Of a stretch of DNA of 64,000 nucleotides, positions 14,409 to 34,301 are shown in pieces. Made by a program: the position numbers and the translations under genes. How positions within the stretch are numbered: position 1 is the first letter of the stretch; each line of letters begins with the position of its first letter. Location: the IMG/VR virus record IMGVR_UViG_3300027782_000036. The stretch is one strand, 5' to 3'. The notes under the pieces were generated by a model. The model did not search any database and was not told the origin of the DNA. It saw nothing but the letters and a program-made list of their open reading frames with translations. This DNA comes from a virus.

Positions 14409-14409
14409 T

Positions 14410-14631
14410 ATGGGTGAATTAGTTAAAGTAAATGATTCTACTTTTGTTAGAGATGTTCAGAGTAGAGCTCTTATTAATCAAGACTACACTGGTAGAGATG
14501 AATATTATGCTAAGGTTAAGATGTTAAACAACCAAAAAACTGAAATAAATAAAGTAAATGCTGAGATCAACCAAATGAAATCTGAGATGTCTGAGATCAA
14601 AGATTTATTAAAACAATTACTACTAAAGTAG
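14410..14631 (+). CDS. Small conserved coiled-coil protein following VrlC-like gene
   Basis: VRDVQSRALINQD motif and C-terminal heptads (EINQMKSEMSEIKDLLKQLL); tight spacing with neighbours. Confidence 0.7.
   Translation: MGELVKVNDSTFVRDVQSRALINQDYTGRDEYYAKVKMLNNQKTEINKVNAEINQMKSEMSEIKDLLKQLLLK
14544..14551 (+). promoter_or_regulatory. Putative late promoter (AATAAATA)
   Basis: NATAAATA ~90 nt upstream of the 14639 fibre gene. Confidence 0.4.
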
Positions 14632-14638
14632 GACACAT

Positions 14639-17600
14639 ATGCCAGTCATAGAAAATTTAAGTTTAGCAAACACCTTTGGAGAATGGGTCAATATCACCAA
14701 TGATGCTGTTGATGCAATTAACACATTATATTTTGATAATTTTAATAAGCCGACAGGAACGTTATATTTAAGTGAACCAACAACAGGTTTAGTGGTTGCT
14801 AATAATTCTTTATTTCAAGGTTTAGTTCAAGTTGGCACTTCAGGTAGCATAGTATCTTATGGTCTGATTGAAGGTAAAGATAGTTTAGTTCTTTCAAATA
14901 CTAGTTCAAACAAAGTTGTTCTTACAGCAAATGGTATTGTTGAATTAATAGGTCCTAATGCTTCACTTAAAGTTTCTAATAATGCTATAATCTATGGTCG
15001 TTTAAACGTTGACAATATAGTTGCTAACACTATTACTGTTAAAAATTTCAATAATGATTTTTTAAATGCTGCTTTCAGTCAAGCCAACTCAGCAGCCTCT
15101 TTTGCTAATGGTGCTTTTACTAAAGCAAATACAACCAATGATTTAGCTTACTTAATTTATTCTTATGCTAATACTAGTTACACTCAAGCTAATAATGCGG
15201 CTAGTTTTGCTAATGGTGCTTTCACTAGAGCTAATACGACTAATGATTTAGCTTATATCATATATTCTTATGCTAATACTAGTTACACTCAAGCTAATAA
15301 TGCGGCTAGTTTTGCTAATGGTGCATTTAGTCGTGCCAATAGTGCTGCTTCATTTGCCAATGGTGCATTTACAACTGCTAACAATGCATTCAATGTAGCT
15401 AATGCAGCTTTCTTTCAAGCAAACAATGCATTCAATGTGACAAATGTAGTTTTTGGTGTTGCTAACAGTGCAGCTTCATTTGCTAACGGCGCTTTCGTAT
15501 CAGCTAACAGTGCAGCTTCATTTGCTAATGGTGCTTTTAATGCTGCTAATTCAGCAGCTTCATTTGCTAATGGTGCTTTCACTAAAGCTAATACGACTAA
15601 TGATTTAGCATACATCGTATATGCTTATGCTAATACAGGTTATGCTCAAGCCAATTCAGCAGCTTCATTTGCTAATGGTGTATTTACTACCGCTAATGCA
15701 GCTTTACCAAAATCAGGTGGAACATTAACAGGAGATATTACTGGTGCAAATGCTACATTTCAAAATATTTCTGCACAAGGTAATTTTACAATTAACGGCG
15801 TAACTGTTTATAACTCTGATGTATTTACATTAAATTCTGGTGCTGCAACTAATCAAAATGGTATATTCTCAAATTATAGACCTTCTGGTTCTTCTAATGC
15901 AGCTATTAGATGGAATGAATCTACCTTATCTTGGGGTATTAGAGATGTAAATAATACTGATACATCTACTGCTTATGCTAATGTTGTAACATCTAATACA
16001 ACATCATCAACAACACGTTCTGGTATTGTTCAATTAACTGATTCAATATCATCAACAAGCACAACTACAGCAGCAACACCTAATTCTGTTAAAACATCAT
16101 ATGATCTAGCACAAGGTTCTTTTAATCTCGCTAATACTTTGGTATATACATCAGGAGCATTTGATCGTGCTAACTCGGCCTATGCTCAAGCTAACTCAGC
16201 AGCCTCATTTGCTAACGGTGCATTTACAACCGCTAACTCAGCAGCCTCATTTGCTAACGGTGCTTTTGTTACTGCTAACAGTGCAGCTTCATTTGCTAAC
16301 GGTGCGTTTACTTTTGCTAATACAAGATATAGTGCATCAGGTGGTACTATCTCGGGTGATGTATCCGTAACAGGTAACTTAACAGTTAATGGTACAGCAA
16401 CATACATTTATTCTAAAGTAGTGGATATTAATGATTCATTAATTCATTTAGCTAATAATAATACTTCAAGTGATACTGTTGATATTGGTTTCTATGGAAC
16501 ATATAATACTGGTGGTTTTAACAGATATACTGGTTTGTTTAGAAAAGCAGCTGACAAATATTATTTGGTTCAAGCACTCACTACCGACCCATCACAAAAT
16601 ACTGTAACGTTTAATAATTTAAATCGATCAACCTTAGATGCAAACTTTACAGGTGGTACTGTTTCAGGCCTTTCATCTGCTATTCCTGTTGCTGACGGTG
16701 GTACAGGAACTACAACATCTACCGGTACAGGTTCGGTTGTATTACATACGGGTCCAGAACTTATTTCACCATCTATGTCTGGAATGCCTACTGCACCAAC
16801 TGCTGCAGCTGGTAATAATAGCACAATGGTGGCAACAACTGCATTTGTTCAAACTGCCGGCACCAATGTAATTGTTGCACCTTTCTTACAAGCTAACAAT
16901 TCATTTAATGTCGCTAACGCTTCATTTAATCAAGCAAATAATTCATTCAACGTAGCTAATGCTGCCTTTATTCAAGCTAACAATTCATTCAATGTAACTA
17001 ATGTTGCTTTCACTGCTGCTAATAGTGCAACTTCATTGATTAGAGGTTTTGGATTCTATACACAGAATGGTATAACTGCAAATACAGGTCCTGACGGAGT
17101 AAGATCAAGTAATAATGCTTTCATTGGATTAGCATCATCAGGTGTTTCTGTTGGCACATATGCTAATGCTAACACCATTTCTGTTGTTACCTATGATACG
17201 TATGGTCGTGCCACATATGCAGCTAACGTTCGTGTAGTTATCACATCATCACAAATTAGTGATTTATCAGCTACTATAACTCCACCTTTTGCACAAGCTA
17301 ATAATTCTTTTGCCCAAGCAAATAATTCATTCAACGTTGCTAATCTTGCATATACAGCAGCTAATGTAGCTTTTGGTCGAGTTTCAGTTACGGCAAATAC
17401 AGGCGACTTAATAGCTAATGGTATTAATACGGCAGTTGTTGGTAATGTAGTAATAGGTTTAGCAACAACTACTGTAGCTGCTGGCACATATGGTGGTACA
17501 TCACAAATTCCAGTAATTACAATTGATACTAAAGGTCGTGCTACATATGCAGCTAATGTCACCTTCTCTGGTGGTGCAACGATCACTGATGATATCACAA

Positions 17601-18010
17601 CAGATGCTACACGATATCCATTATTTGCTTCATCAACTTCTGGTACTTTATCGACTGCTTACACTTCATCTTCAGATTTAACTTATAATCCATCTACTGG
17701 TACTTTAAGTGCTGTAATCTTTACATCATTATCAGATAGAAGTGTTAAAGATAATATTCAAATTGTCACTGGTGCTTTAGATACTATTAAACAACTTGAG
17801 GGTGTATCATTTAATTGGAAAGAAAATGGTAACAAATCTTATGGTGTAATTGCTCAAGACATCGAACAAGTATTACCAGATATGGTACAAACTAATGATG
17901 CTGGTCTCAAGACTGTAGATTATCAAGCACTATCTGCTTTCTTAATTGAATCAATCAAAGAATTGAAAACAGAGATTGACACACTCAAAGAAAAGTTGTA
18001 TAATAAGTAG
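14639..18010 (+). CDS. Long fibre with Ala-Asn heptad shaft and C-terminal peptidase S74 intramolecular chaperone
   Basis: NTFGEW N-terminus, ANxA heptads, tail-fibre repeats GIVQLTDS...AATPNSVK and PTAPTAAAG...ATTAFV, S74 motif SDRSVKDNI...FNWK...GVIAQDIE. Confidence 0.85.
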   Translation: MPVIENLSLANTFGEWVNITNDAVDAINTLYFDNFNKPTGTLYLSEPTTGLVVANNSLFQGLVQVGTSGSIVSYGLIEGKDSLVLSNTSSNKVVLTANGIVELIGPNASLKVSNNAIIYGRLNVDNIVANTITVKNFNNDFLNAAFSQANSAASFANGAFTKANTTNDLAYLIYSYANTSYTQANNAASFANGAFTRANTTNDLAYIIYSYANTSYTQANNAASFANGAFSRANSAASFANGAFTTANNAFNVANAAFFQANNAFNVTNVVFGVANSAASFANGAFVSANSAASFANGAFNAANSAASFANGAFTKANTTNDLAYIVYAYANTGYAQANSAASFANGVFTTANAALPKSGGTLTGDITGANATFQNISAQGNFTINGVTVYNSDVFTLNSGAATNQNGIFSNYRPSGSSNAAIRWNESTLSWGIRDVNNTDTSTAYANVVTSNTTSSTTRSGIVQLTDSISSTSTTTAATPNSVKTSYDLAQGSFNLANTLVYTSGAFDRANSAYAQANSAASFANGAFTTANSAASFANGAFVTANSAASFANGAFTFANTRYSASGGTISGDVSVTGNLTVNGTATYIYSKVVDINDSLIHLANNNTSSDTVDIGFYGTYNTGGFNRYTGLFRKAADKYYLVQALTTDPSQNTVTFNNLNRSTLDANFTGGTVSGLSSAIPVADGGTGTTTSTGTGSVVLHTGPELISPSMSGMPTAPTAAAGNNSTMVATTAFVQTAGTNVIVAPFLQANNSFNVANASFNQANNSFNVANAAFIQANNSFNVTNVAFTAANSATSLIRGFGFYTQNGITANTGPDGVRSSNNAFIGLASSGVSVGTYANANTISVVTYDTYGRATYAANVRVVITSSQISDLSATITPPFAQANNSFAQANNSFNVANLAYTAANVAFGRVSVTANTGDLIANGINTAVVGNVVIGLATTTVAAGTYGGTSQIPVITIDTKGRATYAANVTFSGGATITDDITTDATRYPLFASSTSGTLSTAYTSSSDLTYNPSTGTLSAVIFTSLSDRSVKDNIQIVTGALDTIKQLEGVSFNWKENGNKSYGVIAQDIEQVLPDMVQTNDAGLKTVDYQALSAFLIESIKELKTEIDTLKEKLYNK
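15158..15324 (+). repeat. 105-nt-period tandem repeat (35 aa, five heptads) in the fibre shaft
   Basis: tattcttatgctaatactagttacactcaagctaataatgcggctagttttgctaatggtgc is identical at 15158 and 15263; a diverged third copy lies near 15560-15680. Confidence 0.85.
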
Positions 18011-22155: not shown

Positions 22156-22503
22156 ATGGCCACAGGTTATCAAGAACTATATCTAGAAAAAGGTGCTACA
22201 TTTAATGTTACTATTACATTAGATGCTGTTAATAATACCCCGTATAATTTGACAGGTTATACTGCAAATTCTCAGATGCGAACTTCATATTATTCAGCTA
22301 ATGCTGTAGCTACATTCTCCACTAGGATTGGAAATGATCCAACTAAAGGTCAAGTAATTCTTAATCTAACACATCAACAAACAGCTAATATATCTCCTGG
22401 AAGATATGTGTATGATATCTATATCTCCAATGGTTCAGATACGTGGCGTTCAAGAGTTTTAGAGGGAATTGTAAATGTCACTCCGTCTGTAACAGTATTT
22501 TAA
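22156..22503 (+). CDS. Small beta-sandwich virion adaptor protein (LxxxQGATF type)
   Basis: ELYLEKGATF...YNLTGYTANSQMR...GRYVYDI...RVLEGIVNVTPSVT, a family often found before fibre genes. Confidence 0.65.
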   Translation: MATGYQELYLEKGATFNVTITLDAVNNTPYNLTGYTANSQMRTSYYSANAVATFSTRIGNDPTKGQVILNLTHQQTANISPGRYVYDIYISNGSDTWRSRVLEGIVNVTPSVTVF

Positions 22504-22518
22504 GAATAGGTAAAATTA

Positions 22519-23646
22519 ATGCCAACCGTAGCCAGTGATTTATATACCGTAAACACTATACAATATGGAAGTGGTGAACCTGGTGCTACAGGTATCCAAG
22601 GTGCTAGTGGTGCTACAGGTACTCAAGGTGCTTCTGGTTCAGGTGCTGCTGGTGCAACAGGTATTCAAGGCGCTTCAGGTGCTACAGGTACTCAAGGTGC
22701 TACCGGTGTCCAAGGTGCCTCCGGCATAGGTGAAACGGGTGCCTCTGGTGCTGATTCAACGGTTCCAGGTGCTACCGGTGTTCAAGGTGCTTCTGGCATA
22801 GGTGAAATAGGTGCTTCAGGTGCCGACTCAACAGTTCCTGGTGCTACTGGAGAACAAGGTGCTACAGGTGTAGGTTTAACAGGTGCAACTGGTGTTGGTG
22901 GTTCTGGTGCCACTGGTTTATCAGGTGCTACAGGCGTAGGTTTAACAGGTGCAACTGGTGTAAGTGTTACTGGTGCTTCGGGCATAGCAGGTGCTACAGG
23001 CGTAGGTTTAACAGGTGCAACCGGTGTGAGTGTTACTGGTGCTACTGGTTTTGCTGGTGCTACTGGTATTGGTGTGGCTGCAATAACAACATTTAGAACA
23101 TCATCAACAGATCAAGTTGTCGTAGAAACAATCAATGCATCAACACAAAGAAGTGTTAAGTTTGAAATGCAATCAAATACATCTTCACAATTTCAAGCAT
23201 CAGAATTAAGATTATTAGTAGATTTACCTAACATATATCTCACTGAATATGGATCAATAGGTGAATCACTAGGCACATTTAAGACATATTATTCCCCAGC
23301 ATCTAATGATTATTCTTCACCTTATATAAATAATGGTGGACTTTCTGTGTGGAATGGAACAACATTGACTATCTACACAATTCATAATGAAGTCATTCAA
23401 GGTTTATTTTCAATGTATGCCGGTGATACATTTACTTTTAATGGTGGGGCTGCAACCGCCACATTAAGTTCAGTATTTACAGAAGTTTCTACTGGAATTT
23501 ATGAAGCAACTACAGCTGAAAATAGATCACCTCCATTATTATTATCAAGAATACAATGGACAGGAACTGGTAATATTGAATTAAGATATACACCAGTTAA
23601 TGCAGTAACAACATTAAGATATATTAAGGCAGAAATATCTGTCTAA
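22519..23646 (+). CDS. Collagen-like fibre protein 1
   Basis: Interrupted GAT/GAS triplet tracts; C-terminal domain QRSVKFEMQ...LTEYG...LRYTP. Confidence 0.8.
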
Positions 23647-23659
23647 CAACTTATTTTTT

Positions 23660-23667
23660 TATAAATA
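23660..23667 (+). promoter_or_regulatory. T4 late promoter TATAAATA
   Basis: Exact consensus, intergenic, upstream of 23712. Confidence 0.75.
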
Positions 23668-23711
23668 CAAGATAACAAAAGCACTAAAAATACCATCAAG
23701 GAGATAACACT

Positions 23712-25970
23712 GTGGCAACAAATAATTCAAAATTCGTAGTAAAAAACGGTCTGTCCGTAGGCAATGGTGCCACCGGTCCAATAGATGTCATTGACGAAAA
23801 TGGTAATTGGATAGGAGCTCAACTTCCTTCTGGTGCAACCGGTGCTACAGGTGCTCCTGGTGCCACAGGTTCTCTAGGTAATGATGGTGCGACTGGTTAT
23901 ACCGGCGCTACAGGTATTCAAGGTGCTTCGGGTGCCACAGGTATTGATGGTGCTTCAGGTCTAACAGGCGCAACCGGCATTGATGGTGCTTCAGGTGCAA
24001 CTGGTCTTCAAGGTGCTTCAGGTTTAACTGGAGCTACGGGTATTGATGGTGCTACGGGTATTGATGGCGCAACAGGTATAGATGGTGCTTCAGGTTTAAC
24101 TGGTGCTACAGGCATTGATGGTGCCTCAGGTGCGACTGGTCTCGATGGCGCAACTGGTTACACTGGTGCTACTGGTTCTGCTGGTCTTGATGGTGACAAA
24201 TATAACACCACATCATCTACATCATTATCAATTCCAGTTCTAGGTGCAACTGGTATCACGGTCGATGCTAATTTAGATTATTCACCTGCTCAAACTATCG
24301 TAATCGCAAAAGATGCTAACAACTATCAATTAGGTACAGTCTCATCATATTCAGGAACGACATTAGCTTTTGTTCCAACAACTTATGTAGGTACTGCCTT
24401 AAATCATACTTCATGGACCGTTAATCTAGACGGTGCTCAAGGTGTTCAAGGTGCTACTGGTTACACTGGTGCTACTGGTATCCAAGGTGCTTCGGGTGCT
24501 ACAGGCGCTGATGGTGCTTCAGGTGCCACTGGTTATACTGGTGCTACAGGTATTCAAGGTGCATCTGGCGCTACAGGCGCAGATGGTGCCACTGGTTACA
24601 CAGGTGCTACAGGTATTCAAGGTGCATCAGGTGCCACTGGTGCTGATGGTGCTACAGGAGAAACAGGAGCTACAGGTTACACAGGTGCTACTGGTATTCG
24701 TGGTGCATCAGGTGCTACAGGTTTTGATGGTGCTACAGGAGAAACAGGATCTACAGGTCCAACTGGCCAAGTAGGTGCTTCAGGTGCTACAGGTTCTCAA
24801 GGTTTAGATGGTGCTACAGGTATTCAAGGTGCTTCAGGTGCTACGGGTATTGTAGGTGCTACAGGTTTACAAGGTGCTAGTGGATCAACGGGTATCGATG
24901 GTGCAACCGGTTTAACGGGTGCTACTGGTATCGATGGTGCAACTGGTATTGATGGTGCTACCGGTTATACTGGTGCAACTGGTATCGATGGTGCTTCTGG
25001 TATTGAAGGTGCTACAGGTATTGGTGGTGCTTCTGGTGCTACTGGTCTTGATGGCGCCACAGGTATTGGCGGAGCTACTGGTTATACAGGTGCTACAGGT
25101 ATTGGTGGTGCTTCAGGTGCTGATGGAGATACATATCATGCTCTATCAACTTCAGTGTTTACGATTGGTGGATCTGGTCAAATCACAATAACATTAAATG
25201 CTACAACATACGATTACACTCCAGGCCAATCAATCATAGTTGCTTATAATGCAAGTAACTATCAATTAGGTACAGTTGTAAGTTTAACTACAAATCAACT
25301 TATATTTAATAAGACTACATCAGTTGGTTCAGGTGAACACGATTCATGGACAATAAACTTAGATGGTGCTCAAGGTGTTCAAGGCGCTACTGGTTATACT
25401 GGTGCCACGGGTTCTTCAGGTAATGATGGTGCTACCGGTGTTCAAGGCGCTACTGGTTATACTGGAGCTACAGGCGTTCAAGGTGCTACCGGTGAAACAG
25501 GTGCTACAGGTATTAATGGTGCAACTGGTGAAACAGGCGCTACAGGATATACAGGTGCTACCGGCGTTCAAGGTGCTACAGGCGAAACAGGCGCTACTGG
25601 TGCCACTGGTTCTGATGGTCTTGTAGGTGCTACTGGTTATACAGGTGCTACTGGTGCTGGTTTACAAATTGGTGCATCAGGTTTAACTACAACCGTTCCA
25701 AATCAAACAATCGACACATATGATGCTACTGTATATAGAACTGCTAAGTATATCATTCAAGCTACTCATAGTTCTGACGTTCATTCAACAGAAGTTATTG
25801 TAACACATAATGGAACAGATGCTTCAGTGACAGAATATGCTACACTCTACTCAACATCTAGTTTGATGACGGTTAGTGCACTTTATAGTTCTGGTTATGT
25901 TTATGTTAAAGTCTCACCAGTAAATACAAACACAACTATTGACTTCTTACGTGAAGCAGTATTAGCTTAA
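23712..25970 (+). CDS. Collagen-like fibre protein 2
   Basis: GTG start with AGGAG RBS; FVVKNGL N-terminus; long Gly-X-Y runs split by two globular inserts; C-terminal YRTAKY...TEY domain. Confidence 0.85.
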
Positions 25971-26011
25971 TACAATAAAAATAAAACAAAAATAATCTAG
26001 GGAGATTACTT

Positions 26012-29000
26012 GTGTCACTACCAACGAATGATATAAAATTTAATGTAACGAATGGCCTGGCGGTAGGTGCTTCTGGCATACAAGTAATTAATACATCAGC
26101 TGAATGGGTTGGTAATTCAGGTCCTGGTGAAAGTCCTTATGGCGCTACAGGTCCAGACGGTGTTCAAGGTGCTGATGGTGCTTCAGGTGTTAATGGTGCT
26201 TCGGGTGTAACAGGTCAAGACGGTGCAACAGGTATTGTTGGTACTCGAGCAGAAGATGGCGCTTCAGGTGCTGATGGTCTACAAGGAGCTACAGGTCCTC
26301 TTGGTGCTATAAAACTTCAACATGGATATGAGTGGACTAATGATCAATTACAATGGAGAGGTAATGCATACGCTGGCGGTGCATCTCCAGCAGTATCAAG
26401 ACTAGAATTTCTTCAATCAGATCCTATTTACTCATATTTAAATGCAATATCTCCAGGTACTTCGTTAGTTATAGATTGGACTGGTTTAACTGTTGCTACA
26501 GTTACCACTATAGGCACTGTTCAATCTCCAACAGCATATACTAATGGAAGACATTATCTACAAATAAGTGCAAATCCTGATGGATATTCTTCTGGTGGAT
26601 ATGGATCAACCAATGCATCTGATGTATTAATGATTGGCACAGGTCCACGAAATCAAGGTATTCGTGGAATTGCGGGTGTCGATGGTTCTACAGGTTTAAC
26701 AGGCGTTATAGGTACCGATGGTGCTTCTGGTGTAACAGGCGCTTCAGGTGCTCAAGGTTTAGACGGCGCTACTGGTGCTACAGGCGTAATTGGTATAGAT
26801 GGCGCAACAGGTGTGACGGGTGACGATGGTGCAACGGGTGTTTCAGGTGCAAGATACCATACAACAAGTTCAACTAATCTAGACTTTGGTACACTGTTCA
26901 CTACTTCTATTTTAGTAGATGACGATCACTTAAACTATTCAGCTGGTCAAACTATAATTATTAATGACCTTGCACACGCAGGTCAACATTTTCATGCTAC
27001 AGTTAATTACTATGACCAAGAAACACATGATTTAAACTTCACAGTTATTGACTATGTTGGTACTATATCATCAACTTCATGGGAAATTAACCTTGATGGT
27101 GCAGTAGGTCAAGTGGGGGCTTCAGGTGTAACTGGTACTAATGGTGATCAAGGTCAAATAGGTTCAGATGGCACACAAGGTTCTAACTTTGATTCACAAG
27201 GTGAGACAGGATCAAATGGTGACCAAGGTATTGATGGTTCATTAGGCACACAAGGTTCAAGAGGATCAAATGGGGTTCAAGGTGACCAAGGTATTGCTGG
27301 TTCTGACGGCACACAAGGTTCAAATGGAACACTAGGTGTAAGAGGTGTGACCGGTGAAAATGGCGATCAAGGTGTAGATGGTGATCAAGGAACTTCAGGC
27401 AATAATGGTGCAGTAGGTCAAGATGGTGCTACTGGTGCTCAAGGTGGTGATGGTTCCACCACAACTGGTCCCGTATCATTACTTTTTGGTGTAGCTTATT
27501 CAAATGTCTCTTGGGTAGATGTATCACAAGGTGCTATAGGAATAAATCGTATTGAATATGAATCAACAGAGCCAATAGCATCAACTCTAAATTATTTAAA
27601 CGTAGGTGATACTCTTACTCTAAATTGGGGATACACAAATGGCGGTGGATGGACACAAGCCATAGTAACGGTCACTGAAACATGGACAACAAATGGTGGT
27701 GCAACTGGAACATTTAATGATTGGTATATTGGTGTAGATATTAGTCCTATCACGGAAAGTGGACTTGGATCACCTTCTGTCATATTCTCTACTGCTCCAG
27801 GTGATACAATTGTTTATGAATCATTTACAGGTCCAACAAATACAGGTTATACAGGTTCAACTGGTGCCACAGGTCCTCAAGGAGATGTGGGTAATCAAGG
27901 TTATAATGCTGATCAACTCACTACTGGTAATCCACGTGGTGCATGGGATCCTTACACATTATACTATGTAAATGATATCGTAGTTACTGCTGCTCCTGCT
28001 GATTCACACAGATGTATAGTGCAAAATACAGGCAACGATCCAGATACTACTTCAGGATATTGGGTAACTACAGCTTGGGCTGGTGCTAGTGGTGCTTCAG
28101 GCACAGATGGTGCTTCAGGTGTTACTGGTGAAATTGGTACAGATGGCGCTTCAGGTATAACAGGAGCTAGCGGTGTTACAGGCGATAATGGTCAACAAGG
28201 TATATCTGGATATGATCAATTATATGGTGGTGCAACAGGTTCATTTGGTGCAACAGGTATCGATGGCGCTACAGGCGTTGATGGTGCTTCAGGTGTAACT
28301 GGCACTACTGGTGTAGACGGTGCAACAGGTTCAAACGGATTAAGATTCCATGCACTTGCTGATGGTACATATTCAATTCAAGGTGTAGGTACTAGCACAG
28401 GAGTTACATTATTACCTGACTCACAATCAGAAGATTATTCTTATTCATTTGCAGTTGGTATGTATATTGTTGTTGCTCGTGATGTCAATAACTACATGAT
28501 TGGTATAGTTACTGCATACAATAATACAAATGGTGCATTATCCTTTGACGTAACTACTTCAGTAGGTAGCGGTTCAGGTAGTGGCTGGATAGTCAATCTT
28601 GATGGTGCAGTAGGTATCGCAGGTGCAACTGGTGTAACTGGTCAAGATGGTGCTACAGGTGCTACAGGTACTATAGGTTCTCAAGGTGACCAAGGTGATA
28701 CTGGTTTATCCGGCACTTATGGTGTTCAAGGTACTACAGGTAGAACTGGCGCTACAGGCGTTAAAGGTGACACTGGTCAAAACGGATTAGTAGGTGAAAC
28801 CGGTTCTGATGGTGTCATTGGTGTAACTGGTTTAGATGGTGAACAAGGTGAAACTGGTGCTACAGGCGCTACTGGTGTTACTGGTCTAAAAGGTTTTAGT
28901 TTAGCACAAGGTTCAACTGGTTTAACTGGCACATCACAACAAACTATTAATATATTTGCTGCTAACGAAATTGGAACGGCTAAGTATCTTGTTCAAGGTG

Positions 29001-29509
29001 TATATAGTTCTAACGTTCAAGCTACTGAAGTTATTCTAACACAAAACGGTAGTGGTGTATACATCACAGAATATGCAACACTCAAAACTGGATCTAAAGT
29101 GATGGATGTAACCGCATCTAGTGACGGTTCGGTGATATCACTCAGAGTAACTCCAACAGTTTCTCCTACAACCTACAATTGGGTTCGTGAATCAATTAAA
29201 GGAAGAATTGGTGGAACAACTATAGAAGATATAACTGGAACTAGTTTCTTCTTTTCATATTCACATACAGATAATCCAGCAATTGCAGTAGGTAAAGCTA
29301 ATCTATATTTTGGAACATATTGGACAAACTTAATTAATTTCACATCATTAATTGGTTCAAGTGTAACATTTGATGAAGCTGGTGTTGGACCACAAAGTCC
29401 GGCAGTAGGTGTTGTTGATAGTTGGGACGGCACAACATTAGTTGTAACTATCTCAAGTGGATCATTTACAAATAGAACCACATTGGATAAAATCACCTAT
29501 GGCTACTAA
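26012..29509 (+). CDS. Collagen-like fibre protein 3 with multiple inserted globular domains
   Basis: GTG start with GGGAG RBS; FNVTNGL N-terminus; Gly-X-Y tracts; CBM-like motif; GTAKY...TEY domain plus an extra terminal domain. Confidence 0.85.
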   Translation: MSLPTNDIKFNVTNGLAVGASGIQVINTSAEWVGNSGPGESPYGATGPDGVQGADGASGVNGASGVTGQDGATGIVGTRAEDGASGADGLQGATGPLGAIKLQHGYEWTNDQLQWRGNAYAGGASPAVSRLEFLQSDPIYSYLNAISPGTSLVIDWTGLTVATVTTIGTVQSPTAYTNGRHYLQISANPDGYSSGGYGSTNASDVLMIGTGPRNQGIRGIAGVDGSTGLTGVIGTDGASGVTGASGAQGLDGATGATGVIGIDGATGVTGDDGATGVSGARYHTTSSTNLDFGTLFTTSILVDDDHLNYSAGQTIIINDLAHAGQHFHATVNYYDQETHDLNFTVIDYVGTISSTSWEINLDGAVGQVGASGVTGTNGDQGQIGSDGTQGSNFDSQGETGSNGDQGIDGSLGTQGSRGSNGVQGDQGIAGSDGTQGSNGTLGVRGVTGENGDQGVDGDQGTSGNNGAVGQDGATGAQGGDGSTTTGPVSLLFGVAYSNVSWVDVSQGAIGINRIEYESTEPIASTLNYLNVGDTLTLNWGYTNGGGWTQAIVTVTETWTTNGGATGTFNDWYIGVDISPITESGLGSPSVIFSTAPGDTIVYESFTGPTNTGYTGSTGATGPQGDVGNQGYNADQLTTGNPRGAWDPYTLYYVNDIVVTAAPADSHRCIVQNTGNDPDTTSGYWVTTAWAGASGASGTDGASGVTGEIGTDGASGITGASGVTGDNGQQGISGYDQLYGGATGSFGATGIDGATGVDGASGVTGTTGVDGATGSNGLRFHALADGTYSIQGVGTSTGVTLLPDSQSEDYSYSFAVGMYIVVARDVNNYMIGIVTAYNNTNGALSFDVTTSVGSGSGSGWIVNLDGAVGIAGATGVTGQDGATGATGTIGSQGDQGDTGLSGTYGVQGTTGRTGATGVKGDTGQNGLVGETGSDGVIGVTGLDGEQGETGATGATGVTGLKGFSLAQGSTGLTGTSQQTINIFAANEIGTAKYLVQGVYSSNVQATEVILTQNGSGVYITEYATLKTGSKVMDVTASSDGSVISLRVTPTVSPTTYNWVRESIKGRIGGTTIEDITGTSFFFSYSHTDNPAIAVGKANLYFGTYWTNLINFTSLIGSSVTFDEAGVGPQSPAVGVVDSWDGTTLVVTISSGSFTNRTTLDKITYGY

Positions 29510-29515
29510 TAAATA
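29508..29515 (+). promoter_or_regulatory. Putative late promoter (AATAAATA)
   Basis: Overlaps the 26012 stop codon, upstream of 29553. Confidence 0.6.
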
Positions 29516-29552
29516 ACATATAACAATCGTATAACACCGGGGAAAATGAACC

Positions 29553-32500
29553 GTGTCAACAACAAATAAATCTTTTCTAGTAAAGAACGGCCTTGCCGTT
29601 GGCGGTGCGTCTGGCATCGTTGAAGTCATTGACACTTCTGGTGCTTGGATTGGTGCAACAGGAACATTACATGGTGCTACAGGATATACTGGTGCTACAG
29701 GATTAACTGGTGCAACTGGTGTTCAAGGTGCTAGTGGTTCTACAGGATTAACTGGTGCTACAGGTGTTCAAGGTTTACAAGGTGCTTCTGGTGCCACAGG
29801 AACTCAAGGCGACCAAGGTGCTAGTGGATCAACAGGATTAACTGGCGCTACAGGTATCCAAGGTTTACAAGGTGCTTCGGGTGCTACAGGCACTGATGGT
29901 ATTCAAGGTGCTTCTGGTGCCACTGGCACACAAGGTGCTTCAGGTTCTACAGGTTTAACTGGTGCTACCGGTGTTCAAGGTAACCAAGGCGCTTCTGGTG
30001 CTACAGGTATTGGTCAACAAGGTGCTAGTGGTTCTACAGGTCTTCAAGGTCCATCCGGACAATCATCGAGTTATTATAACTATAATGCAAAAACTAATCA
30101 GCAATCAGGTGATCCAGGTAGCGGTCATGTAAACTGGAATAACGTTACTCTATTATCATCTACATACCTTCAAATCAGTCATTTAACTGGTGATTCAGTT
30201 GATGTGGATTTATTCCTAAGTATCATTAATCTAAATGATATCATCATTATCCAAGAACAAAATGATTCTTCAAGATTTCAAAAATGGCAAGTCAATGGCA
30301 CTCCAATAGCTCATACGAATTCATACTATGAATTTCCAGTAACACTACTTGATAGTGGAGGTACTGGTATTGGTAATAATAATAGTATCATCGTAGCTAT
30401 CGTATCGACACCAGTTGATGGTGCGACAGGATCTCAAGGTGCTACTGGTTTAACAGGTGCTACAGGTGTTCAAGGTATAACAGGTGCTTCAGGTGCTACA
30501 GGATCACAAGGTAACCAAGGGGCTACCGGCACTCAAGGTATACAAGGTGCTAGTGGTTCAACCGGCCTCACAGGCGCTACCGGTATTCAAGGTTTACAAG
30601 GCGCTTCAGGTGCTACCGGCACTGATGGTGTTCAAGGTGCTTCAGGTTCAACAGGACTTACCGGTGCTACCGGCGTTCAAGGTGCTTCAGGTGCCACAGG
30701 TGCTACAGGTTTCCAAGGTGCTAGTGGTTCTACAGGTCTTACTGGCGCTACTGGCGTTCAAGGAATTCAAGGTGCTTCAGGTGCTACTGGTTTAACTGGT
30801 GCTACTGGTGAAGCTCCGGCAGTTACAATTTATACAGCAAATTCTATTTCTTTAACAGATGGTGTTTATGTTTCAGGTAACGTTCAAAGCATCCAAGCAT
30901 TTAATGATGGTGATCAATACATATTAACAGACGGAAGTCATGCAGGTCCAGCGTGGATATTCAATGTAGATTACATCAATGTAGATAAATTTAATATTGT
31001 TGATCTTAATATTCAATATACTCAGGCTTCAGGCCATACGGTCTATATACAATTATATAATAATAATACATCAACATGGGATTCAATTGGTTCATATAAT
31101 GGTTTAGCTGGTTATTATATGTTTGAACTAGGCGTAATCTCATCATTACCATATGTATCAGCTGGTGTTGTATTATTAAGACTATACCACTCAAATACAG
31201 GTAACGTTTCACATCAATCAAATATAGATTATATTGCTCTTGTAGATTCTATACAAGGCGGTCAAGGTCCTACAGGTAGACCAGGCGCTACAGGTATTTC
31301 TGGTGCTACAGGCGTTCAAGGTATACAAGGCGCATCAGGTGCTACGGGAGCTGCGGGTTCAAATGGTACTAATGGCGCCACAGGTGTTCAAGGTATTCAA
31401 GGTGCTAGTGGCGCAACTGGTATTCAAGGTATTCAAGGTGCATCAGGAGCGACTGGTTCATTCAGTGCATTCACTGCACAGTTTGGTCCACAGACAGCTG
31501 CGACTGGTGCGACAGGTTATGTATTTGTATTAGGTACATTAACAGTAGGTACAGGAGCAACTGGCGCCACTGGTATCACAGGTGCAACTGGTTCTATCAA
31601 TGCTTCAGGTGATATTACAGTTAGAGCTGGTTCGACTACTGGTTCTGCAACAATTACTACACCATCTACTGAATTAGTATTAACACAAACTGGTGATCAA
31701 TATGGTCCTTCAACTTTAAGGCTACAAAGTCGTACTGGCTTAAATGGCGCTTTATTTGATTGTTCCGCTAATCCTTATGCTTTAGTTGATTTTGGATTTA
31801 AAACATCTGCCGCACAAAGAGTTTTAAGATTTGAAACAAGACCTGTTTTTGGTATTATTACTCAAGTTACACCTCGTGAATTCCAAATTGGCGATGCAGG
31901 TACTCCAACTTTAGTTACTGACGATACTGTAGTATTAGTAAACAAAACTACAGCATCAACCTCTACCACCTCTGGTGCTTTACAGGTCAAGGGTGGAGCA
32001 GGTGTTGCTGGAAATCTATATGTAGGTGGTAATACAGTTATCACAGGCGACTTATCTGTAAATGGTAACTTATCTGTATTAGGTACGGTGACATCAGTTA
32101 ATACTGTTAATCTATTAGTTCGTGATAATATTGTTACATTAGATTCGACCATACCTACAAACGTTCCAGCACCATCAATTGATTCTGGTATTGAAGTTAA
32201 TCGTGGTCTCTATCAAAATACTCAGTTGGTTTGGTCTGAAGTTGCAACTGCATGGAGAATGTCTGATGGTAATACGTTTGCTTCTATTTCTTCAGCAAAC
32301 TTAACTCAAGCGGCCTTCGGTCAATCTAACAATGCCTTTAACGTTGCTAATGCAGCCTTTACTCAGGCTAATAATTCATTTAATGTGGCCAATGCAATCT
32401 TTACATTAGCTAATAATACCACAGGTGTTGATACAACCCAAAACACTAATATATCATCAGCACAATCTTATGCTAATGGTGCCTTTGTTACTGCTAACTC

Positions 32501-34301
32501 AGCGGCCTCTTTTGCTAATGCAGCCTTTACACTTGCTAATAGTACCACAGGTGTTGATACAACACAGAATACAAACATTAGTTCTGCTCAGTCTTATGCT
32601 AATGGTGCCTTTGTTACTGCTAACTCAGCGGCCTCTTTTGCTAACGGTGCATTTACAGCTGCTAACGTTTCTCAAGCAATCAACAATACGCAAAATACTA
32701 ATATTAGTTCTGCTCAGTCTTATGCCAACTCAGCCTTCAATATTGCTAACTTGGCCTATTCACAAGCAAACATAGCCACACCAGCATTCGCTCAAGCTAA
32801 CAATGCCTTTAACGTGGCTAATTTAGCTTACACCCAAGCAAATAATGCGGCTTCATTTGCTAACTCAGCCTTTACGTTAGCAAACAACACCACTGGTGTA
32901 GATACTACTCAAAATACAAACATTAGTTCAGCACAATCTTATGCTAACGGTGCTTTTGTAACTGCTAACTCAGCGGCTTCATTTGCTAATGCAGCCTTTA
33001 CATTAGCTAATAATACGACAGGCGTTGATACAACACAAAATACAAACATTAGTTCTGCTCAATCATTTGCTAACGGTGCCTTCACGGCAGCTAACGTTGC
33101 ATACGGTAGAATTCAAATTACTGCTAACACAGGTGATTTACTTGCAAATGGTGTAAATACTCCAATTACAGGTAACATATTATTAGGTTTAGCAACGACT
33201 GCTGTAACGGCAGCTTCATATGCTAATGCTAATACAATTTCAGTTTATACTGTTGACACAAAAGGTCGTTTAACATATTCAGCTAACGTTCCTGTATCAA
33301 TCTCAGCCGCTCAAGTTACATCAGGTAGTTTAGCGATAGCTCAAGGTGGTACTAATCAATCTGCATTTACGACTGGTCAAAGATTATTCTATAACGGCGC
33401 TGCTTTTGTTTCATTAGCTAACTCAGCATTAACTCAAGGTCAATACGCTAACGCTAACACAATGGCTGTGTTTACGACAAATGCTTATGGTGATATTACT
33501 GCTGTAACTAATACGGCATTAGTAATTACATCATCACAAATTAGTGATCTATCAGCAACTATAACTCCACCTTTTGCACAAGCTAATAATGCTTTCAACG
33601 TAGCTAACGCTGCCTTTACTCAAGCAAATAATTCATTCAATGTAGCTAACGTAGCCTTTACAGCCGCTAACGTTGCTTATGGTAGAATACAATTAACTGC
33701 AAATACTGGTGACTTATTAGCTAACGGTATTAATACTCCTGTTACAGGTAATATATTACTTGGTTTAGCAACGACTGCTGTGACTGCGGCTACATATGGT
33801 GGTACAACAGCCATACCTGTATTCACAGTTGATACAAAAGGTCGTTTAACATATGCAGCCAACGTAGCATCACCAGCAGTAACAATCACTGATGACACAA
33901 CGACTGACGCTACCCGATATCCATTGTTTGCAGCTGCAACATCAGGTACATTATCTACTGTATATACTGGTTCTTCGGACTTACAATATAACCCATCTAC
34001 TGGTACTTTGAGTGCGGTTATATTCACTTCACTATCCGATGAAAATCAAAAAACTAATATTAAACCAATTCAAAATGCCCTAAATATAGTGAAGAATATT
34101 AAAGGTGTTACATTTGACTGGAAAGAAAGTAATCTTCCTTCTGCCGGTCTATTAGCACAAGATGTTGAAAAATATCTACCAGAATTAATAGAAACATCTG
34201 ATGATAAAAAGACACTTAATTACAATGGCGTCATCGGTATTTTAGTGGAAGCAATCAAAGAACTTAACGAAAAAGTTAAACAATTAGAGAATAAAGAATA
34301 A
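29553..34301 (+). CDS. Chimeric fibre: collagen + Ala-Asn coiled coil + S74 intramolecular chaperone
   Basis: FLVKNGL N-terminus, Gly-X-Y tracts, ANxA heptads, S74 motif SDENQKTNI...FDWK...GLLAQDVE. Confidence 0.85.
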   Translation: MSTTNKSFLVKNGLAVGGASGIVEVIDTSGAWIGATGTLHGATGYTGATGLTGATGVQGASGSTGLTGATGVQGLQGASGATGTQGDQGASGSTGLTGATGIQGLQGASGATGTDGIQGASGATGTQGASGSTGLTGATGVQGNQGASGATGIGQQGASGSTGLQGPSGQSSSYYNYNAKTNQQSGDPGSGHVNWNNVTLLSSTYLQISHLTGDSVDVDLFLSIINLNDIIIIQEQNDSSRFQKWQVNGTPIAHTNSYYEFPVTLLDSGGTGIGNNNSIIVAIVSTPVDGATGSQGATGLTGATGVQGITGASGATGSQGNQGATGTQGIQGASGSTGLTGATGIQGLQGASGATGTDGVQGASGSTGLTGATGVQGASGATGATGFQGASGSTGLTGATGVQGIQGASGATGLTGATGEAPAVTIYTANSISLTDGVYVSGNVQSIQAFNDGDQYILTDGSHAGPAWIFNVDYINVDKFNIVDLNIQYTQASGHTVYIQLYNNNTSTWDSIGSYNGLAGYYMFELGVISSLPYVSAGVVLLRLYHSNTGNVSHQSNIDYIALVDSIQGGQGPTGRPGATGISGATGVQGIQGASGATGAAGSNGTNGATGVQGIQGASGATGIQGIQGASGATGSFSAFTAQFGPQTAATGATGYVFVLGTLTVGTGATGATGITGATGSINASGDITVRAGSTTGSATITTPSTELVLTQTGDQYGPSTLRLQSRTGLNGALFDCSANPYALVDFGFKTSAAQRVLRFETRPVFGIITQVTPREFQIGDAGTPTLVTDDTVVLVNKTTASTSTTSGALQVKGGAGVAGNLYVGGNTVITGDLSVNGNLSVLGTVTSVNTVNLLVRDNIVTLDSTIPTNVPAPSIDSGIEVNRGLYQNTQLVWSEVATAWRMSDGNTFASISSANLTQAAFGQSNNAFNVANAAFTQANNSFNVANAIFTLANNTTGVDTTQNTNISSAQSYANGAFVTANSAASFANAAFTLANSTTGVDTTQNTNISSAQSYANGAFVTANSAASFANGAFTAANVSQAINNTQNTNISSAQSYANSAFNIANLAYSQANIATPAFAQANNAFNVANLAYTQANNAASFANSAFTLANNTTGVDTTQNTNISSAQSYANGAFVTANSAASFANAAFTLANNTTGVDTTQNTNISSAQSFANGAFTAANVAYGRIQITANTGDLLANGVNTPITGNILLGLATTAVTAASYANANTISVYTVDTKGRLTYSANVPVSISAAQVTSGSLAIAQGGTNQSAFTTGQRLFYNGAAFVSLANSALTQGQYANANTMAVFTTNAYGDITAVTNTALVITSSQISDLSATITPPFAQANNAFNVANAAFTQANNSFNVANVAFTAANVAYGRIQLTANTGDLLANGINTPVTGNILLGLATTAVTAATYGGTTAIPVFTVDTKGRLTYAANVASPAVTITDDTTTDATRYPLFAAATSGTLSTVYTGSSDLQYNPSTGTLSAVIFTSLSDENQKTNIKPIQNALNIVKNIKGVTFDWKESNLPSAGLLAQDVEKYLPELIETSDDKKTLNYNGVIGILVEAIKELNEKVKQLENKE
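32410..33090 (+). repeat. Tandem ~42-aa coding repeats (ANNTTGVDTTQNTNISSAQSYANGAFVTANSAASFANAAFTL)
   Basis: Four TTGVDTTQNTNISSAQS copies plus one AINNTQNTNISSAQS variant in the translation. Confidence 0.8.

Follow-up and report, generated by a model that had tools for sequence, protein, structure and literature searches.

The stretch of DNA analyzed here (the window) comprises 64,000 nucleotides (nt) of IMG/VR virus record IMGVR_UViG_3300027782_000036, which is low-GC (31-45%) DNA of a T4-like marine myophage. Between positions 22,156 and 34,301 it carries a module of five genes on the plus strand, encoding a small protein that resembles LtfC of phages T5 and DT57C and four fiber proteins with collagen-like Gly-X-Y repeats. 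A short conserved N-terminal segment (the plug) and a C-terminal beta-sandwich domain (the socket) are distributed over these fibers in a regular pattern. On the basis of this pattern and of structure models, we think it rather probable that the five gene products form one composite tail fiber held together by serial plug-and-socket joints of the T4 gp9/gp34 type. Genes are named below by their first position, and the parts of the module are as follows (aa, amino acids; AF2, AlphaFold2).

22156..22503, + strand: LtfC-like immunoglobulin (Ig)/beta-sandwich protein, 115 aa, proposed virion-side adaptor, cyanophage core cluster T4-GC 211 (from Pfam, PHROG and fold)
22519..23646, + strand: fiber 1, 375 aa, without plug; short N-terminal beta-strand-like segment, imperfect Gly-X-Y region, socket 1
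23077..23643, + strand: socket 1 (aa 187-295), about 55 more residues, and final aa 350-374 again matching the end of the socket profile (hmmsearch E 1.5e-45; partial match domain E 0.011)
23712..25970, + strand: fiber 2 (752 aa), consisting of plug A, a Gly-X-Y region of 456 aa that has two globular inserts, and socket 2 as its very C terminus; GTG start codon
23712..23822, + strand: plug A, aa 1-37 of fiber 2 (profile E 1.8e-25)
25671..25967, + strand: socket 2, aa 654-752, eight-stranded beta sandwich folded like the C-terminal domain of T4 gp9 (AF2 model)
25818-25847, + strand: predicted plug-contact strand of socket 2, D703-L712 (VTEYAT) (complex model)
26012..29509, + strand: fiber 3 (1165 aa), consisting of plug B, a Gly-X-Y region of 441 aa that has globular inserts, socket 3, and a further 101 aa at the C terminus; GTG start codon
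26012..26131, + strand: plug B, aa 1-40 of fiber 3; predicted contacts with socket 2 at N6-N14 (nt 26027-26053) and A20-G22 (complex model)
28904..29203, + strand: socket 3, aa 965-1064 of fiber 3 (hmmsearch E 1.4e-46)
29553..34301, + strand: fiber 4, 1582 aa, without socket; plug C, 345 aa of Gly-X-Y, long noncollagen shaft, C-terminal Peptidase_S74; proposed distal segment; GTG start
29553..29663, + strand: plug C, aa 1-37 of fiber 4 (profile E 1.1e-26)
34035..34187, + strand: Peptidase_S74 (chaperone of endosialidase) domain, aa 1495-1545 of fiber 4 (PF13884, E 1.5e-13, 51.3 bits, cut-off 22)

The initial annotation had described an N-terminal FxVxNGLxVG motif in 23712, 26012 and 29553 that is absent from 22519, and a C-terminal domain in 22519, 23712 and 26012 that is absent from 29553, which was said to end in S74 instead. 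Each of these observations was borne out. When all six frames of the window were searched with the expression [FYLIV].[VIL].NG[LIV].[VIL]G, only the three expected genes matched; the motif begins at residue 8-10 of the open reading frame (ORF), lies within residues 8-19, and reads FNVTNGLAVG in 26012 and FLVKNGLAVG in 29553. The conserved N-terminal block is longer than the motif first noticed, extending over about 37 aa with 52-59% identity among the three genes, and a second element, V-[IV]-[DN]-x-x-[GA]-x-W-[IV]-G, precedes the first Gly-X-Y. Likewise, the expression [RGK][STA].K[YF]..[QE] matches in exactly three places, and a socket profile of about 100 aa spans residues 187-295 of 22519, 654-751 of 23712 and 965-1064 of 26012 (E 1e-45 to 1e-47). 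Relaxed profile searches of the window yielded no additional copy of either element, and the S74 match at the end of 29553 lies well above its cut-off, with no socket in that gene. The reported gene order (adaptor, socket only, plug and socket twice, plug only) holds in the window and recurs in about 12 related contigs.

Only in 23712 is the socket strictly C-terminal, because it is trailed by about 80 aa in 22519 and by 101 aa in 26012. No mutual similarity is detectable between these two trailing pieces. Since the last 25 aa of 22519 match the end of the socket profile again, the extra piece in that gene looks like an insertion. The collagen repeats themselves are recognized by PF01391 with E values of 2.5e-65 (23712), 4.1e-57 (26012) and 1.1e-43 (29553), and 22519 is borderline (27.0 versus a cut-off of 27.2 bits). 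Gly-X-Y runs in fibers 1 to 4 measure 66, 456, 441 and 345 aa, respectively. All 30 collagen-family plug genes checked in the window and in related contigs L006-L021 start with a non-ATG codon (GTG in 25, TTG in 5) behind a good Shine-Dalgarno sequence, and all 11 plug genes from noncollagen lineages (described below) start with ATG. The non-ATG starts may tune the expression of fiber segments.

It had also been proposed that each N-terminal motif docks in the C-terminal domain of another fiber, with multimer prediction suggested as a check. We modeled three copies of the last 129 aa of 23712 (socket 2) together with three copies of the first 65 aa of 26012 (plug B), using alignments of orthologs and paralogs. 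This complex passed with ipSAE values of 0.80, 0.80 and 0.78, compared to 0.02 for the best of three controls; in calibration, 58 of the 80 solved complexes attained the mark, as did 2 of the 110 mismatched pairs. The runs have at least 68% of contacts in common, and the partner predicted local distance difference test (pLDDT) score is at least 69. In all three copies the interface is identical, with socket residues T693, D703-L712 and S716-L724 facing plug residues N6-N14 and A20-G22. The listed residue pairs obey i + j = 98, which implies antiparallel strand addition of K-F-N-V-T-N onto V-T-E-Y-A-T. The predicted interface thereby joins the most conserved motif of each partner, namely, the FxVxN strand of the plug and the TEY strand of the socket. 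Along with gene order, equal plug and socket counts, gene adjacency and a gp9-like fold (see below), the complex model lends in silico support to the proposed docking. We infer that the other two junctions work in the same manner and that pairing follows gene order.

The AF2 model of socket 2 is an eight-stranded antiparallel beta-sandwich (pLDDT 78.8 overall and >90 in the domain), which places at the C terminus of the fiber the same arrangement as in the C-terminal domain of T4 gp9. Indeed, T4 gp9 is the best match of the socket in the PDB according to Foldseek (E 7.8e-5), and a second structural alignment paired the domain with gp9 residues 166-283 (1qex_A; Z 13.6, root mean square deviation [rmsd] 2.6 A, 109 aligned residues, 15% identity). 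This Z score clearly exceeds those for a baseplate chain of Klebsiella phage KP1 (Z 10.5) and for two Acinetobacter tailspikes, 6e1r and 6c72, in their C-terminal domains (Z 9-10). None of the four fibers matches a gp9 family in Pfam, and a search of PDB sequences with the socket profile returned nothing relevant. Because there is no detectable sequence homology, our claim is limited to fold and mode of action and does not extend to membership in the gp9 family. A C1q/TNF-like collagen head of the kind found in BclA was considered and rejected, as C1q heads appear far down the list of matches (Foldseek rmsd >11 A, VIA Z 4.3-4.7).

T4 gp9 is the connector between baseplate and fiber and is known as the "socket protein." The long tail fiber of T4 attaches coaxially to the gp9 C-terminal domain through the N terminus of gp34 (PMC3004832, PMC10253068), and this gp9 domain is also needed for folding and trimerization (PMC10253068). 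The gp34 protein begins M-A-E-I-K-R-E-F-R-A-E-D-G-L-D-A-G-G-D-K-I-I-N-V. Its family consensus at residues ~8-24, F-R-A-x-x-G-L-D-A-A-G-E-K-V-I-N-V, can be placed beside the plug pattern K-F-x-V-K-N-G-L-A-V-G-G...I-D-V-I in the same register from residue 1. A profile-profile comparison of plug and gp34 (hhalign) gave P 6.7e-4 over 19 columns, with a probability of only 27%. Single-profile searches of plug and socket against T4 gp34-37 produced no significant match, and none to gp35-37. Kinship between the plug and the gp34 N terminus is thus only suggestive at the level of sequence, a lead and not a demonstration.

To survey related phages, IMG/VR was scanned with the plug alignment alone, which gave 17 loci. 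Every contig that spans the module has the same order: an LtfC-like gene, a socket-only gene, a plug-and-socket gene of about 760 aa, a second plug-and-socket gene, a plug-only gene ending in S74, and RCC1-type genes. This five-part order is the one seen in the roughly 12 contigs mentioned above. Across contigs, plugs A, B and C and sockets 1, 2 and 3 form position-specific orthologous classes. In whole records the numbers of plugs and sockets are equal: 3/3 in a 160-kb record that is 99% complete, in a 127-kb record and in a 118-kb record; 1/1 in another 160-kb record (93% complete) and in a 70-kb record; and 2/2 in cyanophage S-TIM5. These equal numbers leave no surplus "baseplate socket" awaiting plugs. 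A separate baseplate socket that takes all plugs was considered but not adopted, as there is no fourth socket in the 99%-complete relative. Neither tblastn with a 46-aa plug against phages, for which the query is too short, nor a word-indexed protein search with plug residues 1-42 returned a match.

Several of these relatives differ in individual segments. In closest relative L006 (7241-9938), two genes stand in place of fiber 1. The first keeps the fiber-1 N terminus (M-P-T-V-I-S-N-D-L-Y-N-V-N-T-I-Q-Y-G) and otherwise looks by eye like a tailspike beta-helix, and the second encodes a separate 247-aa protein with a nearly identical socket 1. Judging from sequence, this is a case of exchanged shafts with the joint retained. 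Fiber 2 (23712-25970) has exactly 456 Gly-X-Y residues in the window, as do its orthologs in L006, L008, L011, L012, L019 and L020; among contigs with the complete gene, only L016 and L017 (462 each) and L010 (618) deviate. The length is kept though identity drops to about 65%, which suggests a ruler-like constraint on this segment. In both L010 (16298-16729) and L011 (~14670-15100), two different contigs, an in-frame stop interrupts socket 3 past profile position ~65, and the remainder of the socket plus an extension of about 100 aa is encoded, still in frame, by a separate ORF of 138 aa. Possible explanations are a split socket, a read-through site or decay. The next fiber gene in both contigs starts like T4 gp37 (M-A-K-T-L-Q-F-R-R-D...), and the plug-only fiber lies further downstream, about 5 kb away in L011 (where it ends in S74) and about 10 kb away in L010.

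Sockets and plugs are also paired where collagen is absent. In fiber lineages without collagen repeats, a gene with an N-terminal plug begins 60-95 nt after each C-terminal socket. For example, contig L022 encodes a 296-aa protein with a socket at its C terminus, and 84 nt beyond it begins a gene whose product starts M-A-T-N-N-K-K-F-R-L-Q-N-G. A scan with the L022 socket alone found 12 loci in 11 distinct contigs, including L022 itself. In all 11 the socket ends a noncollagen fiber gene (296 aa in L022 and from >500 to ~1,450 aa elsewhere), and in all 11 an ORF starting MSTNKKFR[VI]QNG... follows at a distance of 78-94 nt. The same arrangement occurs in S-TIM5, which belongs to a different genus, and in relatives L054 and L055-57. 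The S-TIM5 protein gp132 has a C-terminal socket, and the neighboring gp131 starts MATNKHFHIKHGLTVG, with the N terminus M-A-T-N-K-H-F-H-I-K-H-G-L-T-V-G. Both proteins are annotated as virion structural proteins, and the pair occupies L023 8453-10784, where gp131 is an 81-aa plug protein. A DNA pattern for M-A-T-N-N-x-K-F matched 23 loci in viral contigs, of which L022 alone is real; the pattern missed the collagen-family plugs because those genes start with GTG or TTG.

The first gene of the module, 22156, matches the Pfam LtfC family (PF23926) with 24.8 bits and E 3.3e-5, which is below the gathering cut-off of 27, and matches phrog_3304 ("L-shaped tail fiber protein assembly") with 1e-19. 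Its AF2 model (pLDDT 87.8) has the single-domain beta-sandwich fold of LtfC, and the four top Foldseek matches are DT57C LtfC (8hqz_T/Q) and its T5 counterpart (7qg9_L/J), with E values of 6e-9 to 8e-8 and TMq of 0.69-0.75. The best of these is 8hqz_T (E 6e-9, TMq 0.75, 21% identity). A protein of Pelagibacter phage HTVC008M is the nearest relative (49% identity), and homologs occupy the same position in HTVC008M, P-HM1 and Melnitz. Another similar protein is the cyanomyophage (Kyanoviridae) core protein "T4-GC 211," whose gene likewise comes after those for gp8, VrlC and a small structural protein. According to these models, 22156 is a structural homolog of LtfC and fits the role of an adaptor.

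In phage DT57C, twelve LtfC copies form a collar, and two N-terminal beta-strands of LtfA are taken into the LtfC sheets and hold the lateral fibers in place (PMC10713586). Fiber-1 orthologs lie directly 3' of the LtfC-like gene in nine contigs, and by analogy 22156 would hold fiber 1 (22519). In most relatives, as in the window, the gene immediately following the LtfC-like one has a short hydrophobic strand-like start followed by a Gly-rich region (e.g., Y-V-E-V-T-A-V-G-I-Q-G-L). The corresponding starts in HTVC008M, P-HM1 and Melnitz are V-S-V-T-V and V-T-R-V-[AT]-[TV], and in P-HM1 and Melnitz the gene encodes only 73-90 aa. Such starts are located at 22519-22580 in the window and at 12346 in L001, 12340 in L002 and 12344 in L003 (Kyanoviridae-like phages). 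This strand-like N terminus is a candidate for the segment held by the LtfC-like protein, which would fit anchoring in the style of LtfA.

A composite fiber built from these parts would have its N termini toward the virion, as in other phage fibers, and would be assembled in gene order. LtfC-like adaptor 22156 would sit on the virion and receive the free N terminus of fiber 1, which carries socket 1. Fiber 2 would then insert plug A into socket 1 and offer socket 2; fiber 3 would insert plug B into socket 2 and offer socket 3; and fiber 4 would insert plug C into socket 3, with its S74 chaperone maturing the distal end and then leaving. Each socket would be a gp9-like C-terminal beta-sandwich of ~100 aa that probably also nucleates trimerization of its own chain and registers its own collagen helix, and each plug would be formed by the N-terminal ~37 residues of the protein encoded next. 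At each joint, three plug strands (K-F-x-V-K/T-N) would lie antiparallel to the V-T-E-Y-A-T strand of one socket subunit each, and two trimers would be joined with three-fold symmetry. The Gly-X-Y residues total about 1,300, which corresponds to about 380 nm of triple helix at the collagen rise of ~0.29 nm per residue. The globular inserts and the ~900-aa noncollagen part of fiber 4 would add to this length. We infer a linear chain, and these lengths would make it a segmented fiber of roughly 0.4 micrometer or more.

A number of observations weigh against such a chain. A linear fiber of at least 0.4 micrometer would be unusually long, and the pieces of 80-100 aa that follow the sockets of fibers 1 and 3 could alter or block coaxial docking. 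The complex model covers one of three junctions (socket 2 and plug B), was built with 3+3 chains from shallow alignments (16 and 21 rows), both features unlike the calibration set, and supports binding without demonstrating it; nor does it indicate specificity, since close cousins of a true partner pass too. At the predicted cross-strand pairs (socket i + plug j = 98), 35 junctions revealed no clean compensatory pattern of covariation. Socket and plug coding regions lie 40-95 nt apart, and their adjacency could also be expected from tight linkage and tandem duplication. In a single-profile hmmsearch, the plug scored -0.7 bits against gp34, which is not significant. The gp9-like fold also ends tailspikes that have no partner (Acinetobacter 6e1r and 6c72), and the S-SM2 genome contains no credible plug despite the C-terminal socket of SSM2_107, so a domain of the socket type need not be a socket. 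Finally, S-TIM5 gp024 combines a plug and a socket in one isolated gene and does not fit a simple ordered chain.

These two exceptional phages have further features. S-TIM5 gp024 (L005 8561-10255) is a distant stand-alone gene with a plug-like N terminus (F-D-V-K-H-G-I-S-V-N-G) and a C-terminal socket; its sequence may point to alternative partners or tips on one socket, to branching, or to a three-part chain. In S-SM2 (L004 13627-15291; NC_015279.1 71346-71915), the socket-terminated SSM2_107 is flanked by gp16 and gp17, and an ORF of 4,159 aa in the same phage includes two internal socket-like copies. These orphan sockets imply that the basal role of the domain may be trimerization.

That role is central to the alternative that survives best, which we nonetheless regard as unlikely. 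The plug could be a common virion-attachment tag that binds somewhere other than a socket, for instance to the LtfC-like protein by strand donation as in DT57C, or to a baseplate protein. Fibers 2 to 4 would then be attached separately, and the C-terminal domain would serve only as a trimerization or folding nucleus and distal knob, with S74 replacing it in fiber 4. Collagen-like proteins in general require a globular trimerization domain, and the requirement of the gp9 domain for folding and trimerization, together with the presence of the fold on partner-less tailspikes and on SSM2_107 of plug-less S-SM2, is consistent with such a function. Moreover, LtfC anchors fibers by way of short N-terminal beta-strands, and the plug is predicted to be a beta-strand. 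However, parallel attachment leaves unexplained why complete records have equal numbers of plugs and sockets, why a plug is invariably missing from the first fiber and a socket from the last, and why socket-then-plug genes recur in the noncollagen fibers of other lineages. HTVC008M, P-HM1 and Melnitz also carry the LtfC-like gene but no plug or socket, and the socket-plug model scored 0.80 versus 0.02 for its control.

Slightly less probable still is promiscuous or lateral docking, in which any plug could enter any socket, or sockets 1 and 3 could bear side branches, to give branched or heterogeneous fibers or alternative tips. The plugs have all contact residues in common in addition to their overall identity, and the complex prediction would also accept close cousins of the true partner. 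Branched fibers are known in DT57C, which has LtfA and LtfB (PMC4728585). S-TIM5 has one socket-only protein (gp132) and two plug bearers (gp131 and gp024), and in L011/L021 and L010 the plug-only fiber is 5-10 kb away, with another type of fiber inserted. On the other hand, gp9 binds its fiber coaxially (PMC3004832), and the predicted interface has three-fold symmetry, with each copy making the same contacts. The conservation of position-specific plug and socket classes is likewise what would be expected of specific junctions.

A transient contact, in which the plug or socket is a templating or chaperone surface during folding and leaves no lasting link in the virion, seems very improbable: phage fibers are commonly chaperone-dependent and fiber 4 carries an S74 domain of the kind that is normally cleaved off, but S-TIM5 gp132 (socket) and gp131 (plug) are both annotated as virion structural proteins, and the plug is retained on long structural proteins at the N terminus, the usual site of fiber attachment.

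The genes around the module are those of a T4-like particle. Upstream of it lie baseplate genes, a gene for a VrlC-like giant protein, an S74 fiber gene and glycosyltransferase genes, and downstream are genes for three Gly-rich/RCC1 proteins followed by neck, terminase, sheath and tube genes. A megablast search of phage genomes with the 14.5-kb module gave no match, and there is no close DNA relative among the sequenced phages. The last ~150 residues of the two S74-terminated fibers of the window (14639-18010 and 29553-34301) are very similar; in HTVC008M, two S74 fibers likewise flank the LtfC-like gene. Between the VrlC-like gene and the first S74 fiber is an ORF of ~73 aa (14409-14630), a positional counterpart of the cyanomyophage "T4-GC 112" small virion protein that looks by eye like a coiled coil and is shorter than the minimum ORF lengths applied to the window.

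The proposed composite fiber, with four segments in series, may exemplify something broader. At slightly less than even odds, a portable gp9-like socket and gp34-like plug constitute a general coupling that strings trimeric fibers in fixed order in several marine myophage lineages, here four Pro-poor collagen segments in one fiber of ~0.4-0.5 micrometer, several times the T4 long tail fiber. If this holds true, T4 gp9 and the gp34 N terminus would be one specialized instance of an older fiber-to-fiber joint. Marine T4-like phages, which have many giant fiber proteins, are generally said to lack recognizable gp9-12 and gp34-37 genes. A plug-and-socket code would let sequence reveal fiber architecture, both the order in which proteins are mounted on one another and the length of the fiber, and would account for the exchange of shafts between retained joints. 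For electron microscopy, the serial arrangement predicts a single very long segmented fiber with knots at the joints. A natural trimer-to-trimer coupling may also serve modular fiber building in laboratory phage work.

Several elements of this proposal are already known, including multiprotein fibers (T4 gp34-37), fiber sockets (gp9) and strand-donation anchoring (LtfC). What appears to be new is a homologous gp9/gp34-type joint on the ends of fiber proteins, with up to three in series, combined with collagen-like shafts and present in several marine myophage lineages. The literature that was searched on cyanophage fibers, LtfC and gp9/gp34 yielded no description of such a reiterated fiber joint. 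Such a joint would tie T4 gp9/gp34 to a wider family of fiber joints.

At the virion end of the module, the closest parallel is LtfC of T5 (p132) and DT57C. Gene 22156 encodes the LtfC fold just upstream of the first fiber gene, and the DT57C LtfC-LtfA contact is made by strand addition, the same kind as that predicted for plug and socket. Unlike LtfC, 22156 is 115 aa in length rather than 140, its Pfam score is under the cut-off, and its particle is contractile-tailed and T4-like, for which the dodecameric siphovirus tail-tip ring of LtfC cannot simply be assumed. Branched systems, namely, DT57C LtfA/LtfB and RaK2 gp529, also mount one receptor-binding protein on another (PMC10253068; PMC4728585). 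The C-terminal domain of RaK2 gp529 is gp9-like and was interpreted there as a trimerization aid only, with no plug motif reported (PMC10253068). These systems differ from the module in that they branch through other docking domains.

T4 offers further close parallels. The socket superposes best on the C-terminal domain of gp9, which binds its fiber coaxially and drives trimerization, and the plug and the gp34 N terminus have in common F-x-[AV]-x-[DN]-G-L-x-[AV]-x-G at equal distance from residue 1. Unlike gp9, however, the sockets of the module are located on the distal ends of fiber proteins and not on a baseplate protein, are three in series, and are combined with collagen-like shafts. As in T4 gp34-gp35-gp36-gp37, several different trimers would be arranged N to C in one proposed fiber whose gene order matches the proximal-to-distal order (PMC3004832; bioRxiv 10.64898/2026.03.06.709160), and the last segment has a folding aid at its C terminus, with candidate tip proteins coming after it. 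T4 has a different joint at each position, including the monomeric hinge gp35, whereas the module repeats one homologous joint. None of the four fibers matches a gp34-37 profile in Pfam or PHROGs. The module would work like a T4-type long tail fiber but is not a member of that group.

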